From Eledone cirrhosa (Eukaryota), in assembly GCA_964016885.1 (NCBI GenBank), contig OZ024747.1:21080001-21144000 (forward strand): a stretch of 64,000 nt of DNA. Direction: 5' to 3'. A program made the position numbers and the translations under genes. The notes under the pieces are model-generated. The model was not told the DNA's origin and made no database searches. It was given only the letters and a program-made list of their open reading frames with translations. The stretch's first letter is position 1; each line of letters starts with the position of its first letter. Positions 1,459 through 46,996 of this stretch are shown here, one piece after another.

Positions 1459-1497
1459 TGAACAAGTACTTTCATGCTTTCGCAATCTTCAGGTTCA
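1459..1497 (-). ncRNA. Minimal type I hammerhead ribozyme (inverted copy of 1571-1609)
   Basis: Reverse complement reads tgaac CTGAAGA t tgc gaaa gca t GAAA gtac TT gttca. Confidence 0.8.
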
Positions 1498-1570
1498 TAA
1501 TGTGTGGTGACAGTCAAGTTTGCAATTTTCAACAGTTGAAATTTGCAAACTTGACTGTCACCACAGAATA

Positions 1571-1609
1571 TGAACCTGAAGATTGCGAAAGCATGAAAGT
1601 ACTTGTTCA
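1571..1609 (+). ncRNA. Minimal type I hammerhead ribozyme
   Basis: Stem I tgaac/gttca, core CUGAAGA, stem II tgc-gaaa-gca, GAAA, palindromic stem III agtact, cleavage triplet CUU. Confidence 0.8.
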
Positions 1610-1954
1610 ATTAACACTTAACATTTAATATTCTATCATACTATTTCATTATAATACCATTATAAATTTTAAAGATTGTAAATAAAACGAGTAAATCAGA
1701 CAAAGTTGGAATTCCTCTTATTAATATAATCTTCTATACACAATCATACACACCCATGTATATTTATCTATCTATCTATATATATATCTATATATATATA
1801 TATATATATATATATATATATAGAGAGAGAGAGAGAGAGAGAGAGAGAGAGAGAGAGAGAAGTAGTTCGACAACAGTTAGTTTACCATACCGTGAACAAA
1901 TGTTTCATCTTATGTGGATCTTCAACTTCTTCAAATGCTTAGAAAGTTCACTAG

Positions 1955-2670
1955 AAACAGTTGATAGCTTTTGCTACATTGATGACCTCATAAGCTCTGA
2001 AACACAATAGGCAGGGTAAAAACAGAATGCTAGGAGTTCAATTATTGCCTATTTTTGCTGACAATAAGGGCTTCTCTCTGAGAGTAAAGGGCAGATTATA
2101 CGATGCTTCATTCTAAACTGCTATGCTGGAAAAAATAAAGAATTCATGCTGTGTTTGTTGTATAATATTAGTGTGCATAAACAACTGAAAAAACTGAATA
2201 CAACATGAATCAGATGTTGTGTGTAAGAGAGGTGATGCAATTCATATAGATAATGGCAGTTGTATAAAGGAGAACTACACATTTGAAGATGGAAGCTGTG
2301 AAAGGGGTAGACCATGGAGGATATAGATTGAAGTGGTAAAAACTAACTTCAAGAATGTGAATCTCATAAAGAATATGACAGTTACAAAAACTACATGTGG
2401 AGCAGTGTGTTTAGCCTTGCAGTGGACATGACAACTTCTCTAGTGATGGTGCTATGATAAAATTCATCCAGTAAACATCCAGTAAAATGATTGGTATTAC
2501 GCACAGCATCCAGCCATAAGAATTATACCATAAACACAACCTATGAGTGTGAAGTAGTCCATTTGACTGCCCTAGAAGGCAAGCAACACCAAATAAGACT
2601 TGACCCAATCCATAATGACTCATCCAGCCCATGCCAGCATGGAAGACTGACATAAAATGATGACAATGAT
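1955..2670 (+). mobile_element. Highly decayed RTE LINE 3' fragment with 3' UTR
   Basis: DSFCYIDDLIS-like and ...KGFSLRVKGRLYDA-like remnants match the better RTE copies in the window. Ends in the cccatgccagcatggaa...aaatgatgac tail. Confidence 0.7.
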
Positions 2671-2675
2671 TTTTA

Positions 2676-3824
2676 TGTCCCAAATGCAAAGTATGAGTGC
2701 ATAAAAGATGTAGTGGGATCACAGGTAAGCTATCTAAGAACGTAGATTTTATATGTGGCCGGTGCTCAGGTGCAATATGTAGCAAGTGCCCACAGGATAC
2801 TAGCTCCTTCTATTGCCCAGATGGCTCTATAAAAATAGTGGACACCTTCCGTTACCTGGGTGACAAAATCAGCAATGGTGAAGGGTGCTCTGAAAGTACA
2901 GTAGCCAGAGTCAGAACGGGATGGAAAAAGTTCAGAGAGCTTATACCACTATTGGCCACTAAAGGTTTCTCTCTAAAAATGAAAGGCAGACGGTATGATG
3001 CCTGCATTCGAACAGCTATGTTACATGGCAGTGAGACATGGGCATTGTGTGCAGAGGATCTGCACAGACTGGAGAGGAATGAAGCATGCATGCTCCGCTG
3101 GATGTGTAATAGTAATATACGTGAACGGCAAAGCATAAATGAACTAAGTGAGAAATTAGGTATAAGAGGGATCAGATGCTGTTTATTCGAAAGAAGATTG
3201 CGTTGGTATGGTCACGTGATGCACATGAAAGATGACAGCTGTATAAAAAAGTGCAGGGCGATCAAAATTGACGGAAGTTACGTAGTAGGCAGACCCAGAA
3301 AAACCTGGGACGATTTGATAAATTCCGACCTTACACACTTACACCTCTAAGACAATGTCACCTGACCGAGATCTTTGGCACTACACAGTAATACAGGAAA
3401 CCCGCCTTGCCTAAGTACAAAGCGAAGCCTACAGTCAGTAGGCACCTCTTGATCAAATATACGCCCCCCATCCCACTACCCCAACTCCCCACCCCCATCA
3501 ACACCACCCCTTTCTCTGTAAAGTTATGTTGGTACTACAACATCCAGTCCTAAATAAATGAGGTCGTGTAGGTGTCACAACAAAAAAAAAACACACAGTC
3601 CATGCTGTAATGTGGCTGTGTAGGTTACATGGTAAAAACCTTCCAGTCCACACTGTAAATGTGGTTGGTGTTAGGAAGGGCATCCAGCCGTGGAAAACCT
3701 GCCAGACAGTCCTATACGAGCGAGATGACCAATCTTTCCTCAAGTGGGACATTCCCATCTAAACCCATGCTAGCGTGGAAGATAGACGTTACTCGATAAT
3801 GATGATGATGATGATGATGATGAT
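2676..3824 (+). mobile_element. RTE-clade LINE 3' fragment (PHD-like Cys insert, RT C-terminal region, 3' UTR, (GAT)n tail)
   Basis: ORF 2697-3350: HKRCSGI..CGRC, FRYLGD, GWKKFREL, MLHGSETW, RRLRWYGHV, GRPRKTW. 3' stem-loop ccatgctagcgtgg followed by (GAT)n. Confidence 0.9.
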
Positions 3825-44536: not shown

Positions 44537-44879
44537 TATATACACAAATATGAAGCATTGGGTAAAGTGTAGAAAATAGTGTTTTGTTAAAGGCTACCGT
44601 AATTGGATGGTAAATCTTGAAAATATAATAATGATGATGATGATGATGATGATGTTGGGATGCTACCTTGCAGTTCTTTTTAGATCTTTATATTTTGGGC
44701 TAAAGTCCCTTCATCAAAAGCTAAATAGAAGAAACTAGTTCAGAGCTGTAAATATTGTGTTGCTCTTAAGCTGCTGTTTTTTTTTAAATTTGGACAGTTT
44801 GCTGTCAAAAGGTTTAAATATAACTGCACAATGTTTGCAATTGATCAGTCACAGTGTGTTACATTCTGAAGAAATAGCC

Positions 44880-45250
44880 TCAAAACTAGTGTTATGGCAG
44901 CCAGGACATGGGCGAGTAAACTGCAGGAAACAGTCCACCAACTTCTTTAGCATATTTCAAAAAGATATCAGATTCAAGATTCAATCGGACATGCAAACAC
45001 TGATAAGTGGATCAAGACATTTAGAATGAGTATGTTTTCTTGGTTCCCACTGGCTTACAGCATGTAGTCAAATTGTATGTTTTCTTGGTCATCTGCTTCA
45101 TTGATAACTTTTGATAGCAAACTGAATGTTATAAATGTGTATGAATAGTTTTTTCTGTGTTTGATATTGTTTTGGATGTCACTTATGTAAACTATGAGAA
45201 ATGGGCCCAACACAGTGACTTCAGGGACTACACTAGCAACTTTTTTCACA
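44880..45250 (-). mobile_element. Decayed CR1/L2-group LINE RT fragment
   Basis: VASVVPEVTVLGPFLIVYISDI resembles SGVPQGTVLGPLLF..YINDI. Confidence 0.6.
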
Positions 45251-46134
45251 TCCCCCTTCTCCCCATACACTAATCAGTCATCCCAACCCTTTACTCACTT
45301 CCCTGCAAAATAACCACACACACACCTATAACTTCACACCTATCTACCTCCCTTATTGCCCCTTTCGCTGATCAGAGAGGGTCAATGACCGCAACCCTCT
45401 TTAGCAATGGTCCCATGAAAATGTACCTGGTACTGTCCGTAAGGGTGGTTGGTGACAGGTAGGGCACCCCGCTGTAGAAACTATGCCTAAAAGAGTTGAG
45501 AGAACACGTCAGTTGTGTCAAAGTCACAACAACCTTTCTACTCTTGGTGATCTACATGATAAATACACACAGTACACACTGTAAAGTGGTTAGAGTTAGG
45601 AAGGGAATCCAACCATAGAAAGCTTGCAAAACAAACGATTAGGATGGTCCTTTAGTTTGTGTCAAAAGACACCACAATTTCTCCTCTATACTTGATAGAA
45701 TGTATAGCTGTACATAAGCAGGATACATACACCACAGTCAGTAGCCCTGCTTCAATACTGACTTGGTCTATGTAAACCCATCCAAACCTTGCTAGCAGGG
45801 AAAGTAGACGTTAAATGATGATGATGATGATAATATATATATATATATATAATATATATACTTTTATATTTGTCTGTATACATGCATATATTTATATACA
45901 TATGTATTCATATACCTACATTTATATATACATATATATATATACATACATTATGTATATATATATATAGTATATATATATATATATATATATATATATA
46001 TATATATATATATGTATGTATATTTACACATGCATGCACACACATATATACTTATATATCTGTATATATATGTATACATATACATATGCATATATTTATA
46101 TACATATGTATACATTTTTATATATATATATATG

Positions 46135-46839
46135 TATGCAGTAGATGTACAGGGAAATTAGACAGTAGAAGTCGCATTGATAGACACATTTTTCAAATGC
46201 AGGAGGGCGCTATAGAAGTGGTGGATAGCTTCCGGTACCTAGGAGATCAGATTAGCATGGGAGGAGGGTGTTCCGAGGCCATAGTATCTAGAATAAGGAC
46301 GGGTTGGAAGAAGTTTAGGGAGCTGCTTCCTCTATTGACGAAGAAGGGTTTCTCCCTGCGTACAAAAGGCCAGTTGTATGATGCCTGTGTGAGGAGCGCG
46401 ATGCTGCATGGTAGTGAGACTTGGGCAGCAACTGCAGAGGATATGCGACGGCTGGAGAGAAATGAGGCAAGCATGCTCCGTTGGATGTGCAATGTCAATG
46501 TGCGTGAACGACCAAGTATAGATGAGTTGAGAGAGAAACTGTGTCTAAGAGGGATAGAATGTAGTGTGCGAGAGAGGAGACTGTGGTGGTATGGACATGT
46601 GATGCGCATAGAGGATGACCGATGGGTGAAGAAGTGTCAGGAAATGCCAGTTGAAGGAAGACGTGGTAGAGGTAGACCACAAAAGACCTGAGGTGGTGAG
46701 AACAGACTTCAAATCACTGAAGCTCACGGGGGAGATGACGAAGGACCGTGACAAGTGAAGAGATGCTGTGCTGAATAAGACCCATCCCACCCTTCCAAGC
46801 AGGGAAAAGCGGACGTAAAATGATGATGATGATGATGAT
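46135..46839 (+). mobile_element. RTE LINE 3' fragment (short-UTR subfamily)
   Basis: CSRCTG..VDSFRYLGD..GWKKFRELLP..MLHGSETW..GRGRPQKT with a (GAT)n tail. Confidence 0.9.
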
Positions 46840-46925
46840 ACACACATACATACATATATATATATATATGTTGATTTAAAACTTCACTATTCACAAGTGT
46901 TTTTAAGCTTCATATCATGTCTCCC

Positions 46926-46996
46926 TATTTTATCTGATGAGAACGCAGATATCATCCCATGATGATATTTGTTTTTGAAATGCACATAATAAAATA
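46926..46996 (+). ncRNA. Minimal hammerhead ribozyme (second copy of the 42165 family, within a repeat at 46868-47035)
   Basis: tattttat CTGATGA [gaacg cagatatcatc ccat gatgatatttg ttttt] GAAA tgcaca TA ataaaata. Confidence 0.75.

Follow-up and report, generated by a model that had tools for sequence, protein, structure and literature searches.

Hammerhead stubs, Penelope-like elements and retrozymes in a 64-kb window of the Eledone cirrhosa genome

Hammerhead ribozymes in Penelope-like elements (PLEs), lone hammerhead motifs and pairs of motifs on opposite strands are all on record (PMC4209133), as are retrozymes and a proposed link between these and PLEs (PMC7229834; bioRxiv 10.64898/2026.07.22.740005). 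The window analyzed here is a stretch of 64,000 nt from the cephalopod Eledone cirrhosa (C7:21080001-21144000; contig OZ024747.1 within the 3.0-Gb assembly GCA_964016885.1), whose DNA is animal, AT-rich and rich in microsatellites. It holds 13 type I hammerheads in insertions that lie in or next to simple repeats, and the short insertions among these are called stubs below. We consider it likely that several of the stubs, which are insertions into (TA)n, derive from the ends of coding PLEs by internal initiation of the reverse transcriptase (RT); two of the families are retrozymes, likely served by the same enzymes.

What the hammerhead does in PLEs has been called unclear (PMC8557442). An anole PLE studied in vitro initiated internally on uncut RNA, its tail corresponded to the interval between two start sites, and ribozyme cleavage was not needed (PMC11167929); one of nine dimers cleaved in a separate assay (bioRxiv 10.64898/2026.07.22.740005). 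Transcription of Drosophila virilis Penelope starts within the upstream pseudo-long terminal repeat (pseudo-LTR; PMC2377424), and TATA and initiator-like motifs have been noted in rotifer pseudo-LTRs (PMC3846280). Among cephalopods, the supplement of PMC8557442 includes Hydra-1_Obim of Octopus bimaculoides, with a hammerhead with a palindromic stem, and the words 'ribozyme' and 'hammerhead' are absent from the main text of a 2026 repeat annotation of Octopus vulgaris (PMC13282606). The constituent parts described below, namely PLE hammerheads, retrozymes and an octopus Hydra element, are already known. In the literature within reach, which included little subscription content, we found no survey of cephalopod hammerheads and no account of stubs ending at a start site, and the fixed 5' ends of the stubs are the part worth following.

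Like the minimal hammerheads of PMC4209133, those of E. cirrhosa are of type I with a short palindromic stem III and a bulged base before stem II, belong to many families per genome with mostly single motifs, form opposite-strand pairs 100-700 bp apart and include a U3-A8 variant. Unlike them, they have a stem-loop II that can reach 116 nt and 5' ends that are set at a single base, and whereas the accessible text of that work gives ~2,000-9,000 motifs per genome and calls single motifs probable truncated PLEs, we estimate 3x10^5 motifs here.

Hammerhead motifs of the window

A descriptor consisting, in order, of the 5' strand of stem I, CUGAnGA, stem II, GAAA, stem III, UH and the 3' strand of stem I recovered all 12 of the hammerheads that an original prediction, made from the sequence alone, had listed in the window, each within 3 nt of the position given there. 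It also recovered a thirteenth, at 37061-37001 (-), which that list lacked. The core, the UH site and three complementary stems in type I order are present in all 13. Ten of them have a perfectly palindromic stem III, in keeping with the prediction that this stem would usually be a palindrome; the exceptions are 17152, 37061 and 46926, the last of which carries one change that breaks the palindrome. These 10 palindromic motifs depend on either dimerization or a strained hairpin. In 6 of the 13 motifs, the nucleotide at the cleavage site is a U.

The explanation that these are chance matches in AT-rich, repeat-rich DNA has next to no probability left, and we regard it as refuted. It could draw on the finding that most motifs have no unusually stable fold: among the 10 that were folded, two beat shuffled sequences in stability, and only 37061 formed all three hammerhead helices in its minimum-energy structure. 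Rfam likewise detects none. The hammerhead search that had been proposed as a check returned no match in the window at the gathering score, and at E<=1 there was no hammerhead among the matches listed (150 of 295), which were dominated by microsatellites matching microRNA models. Nevertheless, the 13 motifs stand against a mean of 0.05-0.23 and a maximum of 2 in dinucleotide shuffles (40 for each of 6 settings, 240 in total, over the whole window and in 500-nt blocks), so that the prediction passed its own shuffled control; 12 decoy cores matched 0-1 times each in the window, and every family searched is a dispersed repeat that retains the motif. The reversed and complemented window gave no motifs with a stricter descriptor that recovers 9 of the 13 real ones. 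No rearranged hammerhead of the SGC, CSG or GCS type (PMC10085705) was found in the window by descriptor, and there was one weak GSC match.

The motifs fall into nine families, which we named A (1459/1571), B (15764), C (15939), D (17152), E (18862), F (37975/38128), G (42165 and 46926), H (42644/43175) and I (37061). The figure of about eight families in the original prediction was right for its 12 motifs, which are not independent of one another and represent only 9 insertions; with the thirteenth there are 10 insertions. Motifs 1459/1571 and 37975/38128 are in each case the two arms of one inverted insertion, and 42644/43175 belong to a 531-nt tandem. Every insertion lies in or adjoins a simple repeat, mostly (TA)n.

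Links to coding Penelope-like elements and to retrozymes

The original prediction placed the Penelope-like RT elsewhere in the genome, and this agrees with what was found. A tblastn search with 20 PLE proteins detected no PLE protein in the window, where the long open reading frames (ORFs) are of the long interspersed nuclear element (LINE) type, and the genome contains 10,596 GIY-YIG candidates, of which 150 were scored, all above the cut-off.

Family A is present as a two-armed stub at 1345..1765, an inverted repeat centered at ~1534 between (TA)n runs. Its short arm (1345-1533, -) carries the hammerhead at 1459..1497 (-), with a predicted cut after 1464, and its long arm (1535-1765, +) the hammerhead at 1571..1609 (+), with a predicted cut after 1604; the stub is 97% identical over 233 nt to coding copies (L045, L040). 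At 6 of 50 GIY-YIG loci, a family A hammerhead with 94-97% identity lies 350-400 nt past the stop codon of an ORF encoding RT and GIY-YIG, and at two loci (L314 and L315) the family A segment continues into the beginning of the ORF. In Pfam searches of the ORF at L044, GIY-YIG scored above its cut-off and RVT_1 reached 27.6 bits, below the cut-off of 29.6. The predicted protein has an RT, a CX4CX2C linker of the CX2-5CxxC kind that marks Neptune and Nematis, and a GIY-YIG domain at the C terminus. As with the Neptune and Nematis PLEs of PMC8557442, these features come with (TA)n targets and a pseudo-LTR hammerhead. By its translation, family A is a PLE of Neptune or Nematis type. Those of the protein's best relatives that are assigned to animals are all from bivalves, and a few relatives are labelled as bacterial symbiont.

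Family F is present as a two-armed stub at 37775..38308, from a 6.4-kb Hydra-type PLE. Its long arm (37775-38125, -) and short arm (38127-38308, +) carry hammerheads at 38125-37973 (-) and 38128-38266 (+) with a stem-loop II of 106-116 nt, and the arm in the window is 99.7% identical over 349 nt to locus L254. Elsewhere, family F forms tandems with a motif every 6.3-6.5 kb, each unit having an ORF of 803-830 amino acids. Pfam gave no match to this ORF, and BLAST matched it only weakly to the family A protein. By eye, it contains DKT, RWR (for RWK), CxCX5C, CxxC and CxH, with no CCHH, and its target is (TA)n. These motifs, the target and the hammerhead are shared with the Hydra clade of PMC8557442, and it is from such motifs in the translation that family F is assigned to that clade. 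The F unit of 6.3-6.5 kb, with its 3' region of 3.4 kb, differs from the length of <3 kb described in that source.

Both A and F have a single ORF for RT and C-terminal GIY-YIG joined to its own pseudo-LTR (the F motifs being read by eye), and both show the partial tandems, inverted 5' copy and one-sided tail of endonuclease-containing PLEs. As judged from sequence identity, the four motifs of families A and F are the ends of PLEs with a predicted RT and GIY-YIG domain, 94-99.7% identical to coding copies.

The families B, C, D, G and I are present as single arms or stubs. Family B occupies 15755..15870 (+; hammerhead 15764-15823, predicted cut after 15815), C is a long arm at 15900..16190 (+; hammerhead 15939-15996, predicted cut after 15992), and D is a stub at 17107..17218 (+; hammerhead 17152-17200 with a hairpin stem III, predicted cut after 17196) that includes a piece of the inverted long arm (17107-17145). 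Family G has a long arm at 42105..42360 (+; hammerhead 42165-42235, predicted cut after 42227) and a short arm at 46866..47030 (+; hammerhead 46926-46996, predicted cut after 46988), and I is a stub at 36972..37085 (-; hammerhead 37061-37001, predicted cut after 37008). Links from these families to ORFs were searched for with the 20 PLE proteins as queries over all fetched loci. A copy of a sister subfamily of D, 84% identical over 63 nt, leads into the start of a Hydra-like ORF 179 nt past the core (L226). A relative of G lies 892 nt behind a decayed Hydra-like ORF (L258), and a B-type relative, 76% identical over 114 nt, lies 1003 nt behind another (L162). Candidate uninterrupted joins to an ORF number 1 of 47 for B, 1 of 48 for D and one locus among 38 motifs for G, those of B and D being by way of sister subfamilies. 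The extension of flanks to RT and GIY-YIG ORFs that the original prediction had proposed reached them for A and F, reached single loci for D, G and B, and reached none for C and I. The part of the other adjacencies of motif and ORF that was inspected consists of separate insertions.

The fetched loci also contain a further coding family of Neptune/Nematis type with the U3-A8 core variant (L042, L043, L050, L052), in which the hammerhead lies 1.0-1.4 kb past the ORF, the frame reaches 938 amino acids and the pseudo-LTR is ~1 kb. Pieces of divergent Hydra-like ORFs, 27-58% identical to the F protein, were found at L007, L045, L117, L142, L162, L344, L359, L373 and other loci. As these pieces come from unselected flanks, their sequences indicate that the Hydra clade is diverse in this genome and invisible to Pfam.

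Families E and H are of a different kind. In the window, E consists of one full unit (~430-440 nt) of a non-coding tandem retrozyme at 18745..19185 (+), with a hammerhead at 18862-18904 (+) and a predicted cut after 18898. Family H, a non-coding retrozyme at 42592..43441 (-), has hammerheads at 42726-42644 and 43257-43175 and comprises a full 531-nt unit (43122-42592), a partial unit (43303-43123) and an inverted tail arm (43304-43441, +). At 30 loci each, both families are head-to-tail units, of 429-441 and 515-531 nt, and what lies upstream is a further unit, an inverted arm or flanking sequence that is unrelated. Their longest ATG frames have 73 and 66 amino acids, no PLE match was found, and their circular folds are more stable than those of 20 shuffles. 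They share with the metazoan non-LTR retrozymes (PMC7229834; bioRxiv 10.64898/2026.07.22.740005) the non-coding head-to-tail arrangement, a unit some hundreds of bases long, a single type I hammerhead per unit and low GC; they differ in carrying PLE-type inverted arms and one-sided tails. On the evidence of their non-coding tandem units with a type I hammerhead in each, E and H are classed as non-LTR retrozymes. The original description of all the motifs as non-coding ribozyme retroelements holds for E (18862) and H (42644/43175) and fails for A and F, which are pieces of coding elements. Further retrozyme-like arrays occur at L388 (C1:1240766-1245254), L181, L043 and L260, with units of 311, 482, 459 and 430 nt.

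In A, C, F, G, H and J (the last a further family, introduced below), the 3' end of a copy falls at either of two set positions that are separated by ~40-140 nt; a head-to-head pair usually joins a long arm to a short one, with one of each 3' end. An inverted 5' copy with a one-sided tail is typical of PLEs (PMC8557442). Each strand of a stub carries a single ribozyme, so that an intramolecular dimer is possible only in E, H and the tandem elements. In A (29/16) and F (51/32), the short copies are scattered among the long ones and no alignment column tells the two apart, the share of nearest neighbors with the same label being 0.52 in A against 0.53 when shuffled and 0.49 in F against 0.52. 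A short inverted motif of the type ACTC...GAGT lies near the start of the tail in several unrelated families (C, F, G and J in the window, B and D in the loci).

Fixed 5' ends of the stubs and how they may arise

The 5' ends of arms were sampled with search patterns lying 3' of the cut site, to avoid selection on the 5' side, and hits were taken in order along contig C1, giving 54 arms from the first 54 of 6,920 hits for A and 70 arms from the first 80 of 4,309 for F, with 10 skipped. Counted from the core, 24 of the 54 A arms end at -45..-34, 14 beyond -270, one between these and 15 further 3'. For F, 21 of 70 end at -20..-3, of which 16 are at -10..-3 and the remainder are TA runs counted as matches, and 29 end beyond -80. 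In G, 15 of 27 ends are at -69/-70. For D, where the query itself favored short junctions, the figures come from an incidentally met sister subfamily, with 9 of 13 at -8..-5. The A, F, G and D stubs of the window begin at these 5' peaks.

The same holds in a different place for family J, which was absent from the original list and is represented in the window by a two-armed stub at 42393..42500 with only the 3' half (GAAA, stem III and UH) of a UUGAnAA-core hammerhead on the - strand. In this family, 32 of 51 arms end within 5 nt of one base inside hammerhead loop II, within a range limited by a search motif 13 nt 3' of that base, and J stubs hence carry half a ribozyme. Family J is abundant, with 7 arms in the 400-kb genome sample described below; full copies (L166 on the - strand, L070, L256, L349, L063) combine the UUGAnAA core with a TATA-like box that lies in stem II and a 5' peak that falls in loop II.

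A TATA-like box lies upstream of the 5' peak at -31 in A, -30 in the D sister and -31/-29 in J. In all families the peak base is an A that follows pyrimidines, a context which we take to resemble the initiator consensus. Junctions were examined in 128 copies (53 F, 24 G, 12 D, 32 A, 7 C); 50 of these had reference upstream sequence, leaving 78 junction copies, of which 30 were set aside as templated or TA-adjacent and 48 were informative. Of the 48, 18 have a G just before the peak base (P=0.0006 at 17% G), with the F junctions at 9 of 18; the J arms, counted separately, have one in 6 of 22. RTs are known to add a base opposite the cap. A 3' splice site behind the A peak (AG at -42/-41) was considered and rejected, as many arms retain bases upstream of the AG and there is no common upstream exon.

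The mechanism that we propose would begin with a capped RNA, started by the pseudo-LTR promoter and running from the start through the hammerhead and two RT start sites into the ORF. The GIY-YIG domain would cut (TA)n, and each DNA end would prime at one of the two internal start sites, giving two arms. An RT that initiated near the 5' end of the RNA would run off at the transcription start after 150-350 nt and leave a stub, while in a tandem, initiation at the RT start sites that follow the ORF would give a long copy. The cDNA of a stub would then be that of an uncut, capped 5' leader; as the cleavage site is included in the stubs, the template would for the most part be uncut. The arms of E and H run through more than one unit, for which the template would be a multimer or a circle, and the PLE enzymes likely move these retrozymes as well. 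If the J promoter lies inside the ribozyme, only the downstream copy would be whole in the RNA, which would place the action of the ribozyme at the 3' end. In the Anolis Poseidon element PAc (PMC11167929), there are likewise two internal RT start sites behind the hammerhead with the tail between them, an AT-rich target of which both strands are cut and extended, and uncut RNA; genomic stubs ending at the transcription start are not described in the accessible part of that source, and the tails here are ~40-140 nt.

Signs of cut templates were also looked for. In A, 5 of 15 downstream-ending arms lie at +28..+35 (cut +29; nominal P=0.0009), two of the five being from one insertion and the site being near-palindromic. 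In H, 3 of 28 arms end within 6 nt of the cut site, one exactly (from 30 rows, two pairs having been merged as the same arm), and in F none of 17 arms ends there. The genomic evidence for cut templates is thin. At L313-L316 (C1:21872066-21880686), a two-armed family A insertion with arms of ~4.2 kb has its center at the predicted cut site and is possibly a copy of cut RNA.

Two other explanations of the stubs have to be weighed. It is unlikely, in our assessment, that they are random 5' truncations, or lone pseudo-LTRs left by recombination or deletion, with the peaks being hot spots of RT stalling or microhomology. Truncated 5' ends and inverted 5' copies are standard in PLEs (PMC8557442), rotifer lone pseudo-LTRs have been attributed to recombination or deletion (PMC3846280), and many arm ends are indeed scattered (15 of 54 in A and most of C), with H having no peak. 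On the other hand, a TATA-like box precedes three of the peaks by 29-31 nt, the two arms of a palindrome frequently end at the identical base, and recombination would retain sequence upstream of the peak. Relative to the ribozyme, the peaks also stand at differing sites (-44, -7, -6, -69 and within loop II), and a structure common to all therefore does not account for them.

It seems quite improbable that each of the families is a non-coding ribozyme retroelement in its own right, undergoing transcription, cleavage as a dimer, circularization and copying in trans. That account suits E and H, with their head-to-tail units, short frames, absence of a PLE match and stable circular fold, and the TATA-less stubs (F, G, B, C) might retain an internal promoter in the manner of D. 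virilis Penelope (PMC2377424). For A and F as independent retrozymes we regard it as ruled out, given that they are near-identical to the ends of coding elements and that their short and long copies do not separate into lineages. No TATA-like box located upstream of the start is carried along by the stubs of A, D and J, and those of J are also without half of the ribozyme.

The derivation of the stubs from PLE ends by internal initiation has its own difficulties. It is from sequence that we infer the start site, the cap and cleavage alike; the 5' end samples for A and F were drawn from the initial 75 Mb of a single contig, and the peak windows were picked after the data had been seen. Family C has only a soft upper limit, with 7 of 41 ends at -114..-109, none from -115 to -175 and most spread nearer, and there is no TATA-like box near -30 in G, C or B or, by eye, in F. 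The signal of the extra G is weak in A, at 2 of 11, and the overall P becomes 0.04 on the assumption of 25% G, with an imperfect filter for templated bases. The links of D, G and B to ORFs are one locus each, those of D and B in sister subfamilies, and C and I (53 and 5 motifs, with flanks of mostly 1.5 kb) show no continuous link to an RT or endonuclease ORF. All these points weigh against the proposal.

With these points taken into account, we still lean toward the view that Penelope-like RTs routinely copy no more than the capped 5' leader, beginning at two start sites and finishing where transcription starts, onto each end of a cleaved (TA)n, and that this side reaction has filled the genome with hundreds of thousands of hammerhead stubs. 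The RNA of the stubs may be supplied in cis by coding masters or in trans by lone pseudo-LTRs. Should the stubs be leader cDNAs, each clade would offer natural reaction products in the tens of thousands, which would document to the single base the start site of each family, its RT start sites and the cut state of the ribozyme. They would touch on the role of the hammerhead in PLEs and on the insertion route of these telomerase relatives, and would explain why lone hammerheads outnumber coding elements by ~30:1 (an estimated 3x10^5 against 10,596 GIY-YIG candidates, counts that were made differently). The predictions would be exact, with start sites at named bases, mostly uncut templates and two start sites per family.

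Abundance in the genome and other repeats of the window

The original prediction called these motifs very abundant, and the counts agree. The window has 1 motif per 4.9 kb, roughly twice the density of a genome sample of forty 10-kb stretches at round coordinates on 20 contigs (400 kb in total), which held 42 motifs, or 1 per 9.5 kb, against 0-2 in each of 10 shuffles. Seven of the 42 belong to one tandem array. We estimate the number of hammerheads genome-wide at 3.1x10^5, with a bootstrap range of 1.9-4.6x10^5 (25-61 per 400 kb). Published counts of 120,000 in axolotl, >6,000 in a coral, ~5,000 in mussel and ~9,000 in Xenopus are all below 3x10^5, the descriptors used being different. A loose pattern matched the genome 263,998 times in forward and 703,503 times in reverse orientation, with 150,725 and 77,048 in a backwards control; the strand asymmetry is probably due to multiple counting, and this count is for that reason taken as rough agreement only. 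An exact 27-mer of family A occurs 6,920 times genome-wide.

Decoy cores matched the 400-kb sample 0-7 times, and the matches of the top two are mostly real variant families with CAGAAGA and UUGAnAA cores. The family with the CAGAAGA core (U4 changed to A) has intact stems at L155, L156 and L173, and 5 of its arms are in the 400-kb sample.

Several other repeats were seen in the window. A near-intact LINE at 52689-58224 (+) has a frame of 692 amino acids with no Pfam match, an endonuclease frame at 54614-55384 and a frame of 980 amino acids with RT and zf-RVT, and a separate RT fragment lies at 47079-47456. There are minisatellites at 21613-23463 (30 bp x 62, 96% matches, with open frames on both strands) and at 29713-32425 (74 bp x 36). 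Lastly, a very high-copy repeat of 130-450 bp, resembling a short interspersed nuclear element and with >120 matches in the fetched loci, has copies in the window at 4976, 11751, 20665, 26695, 34536, 39245, 52222, 58915 and 61011.

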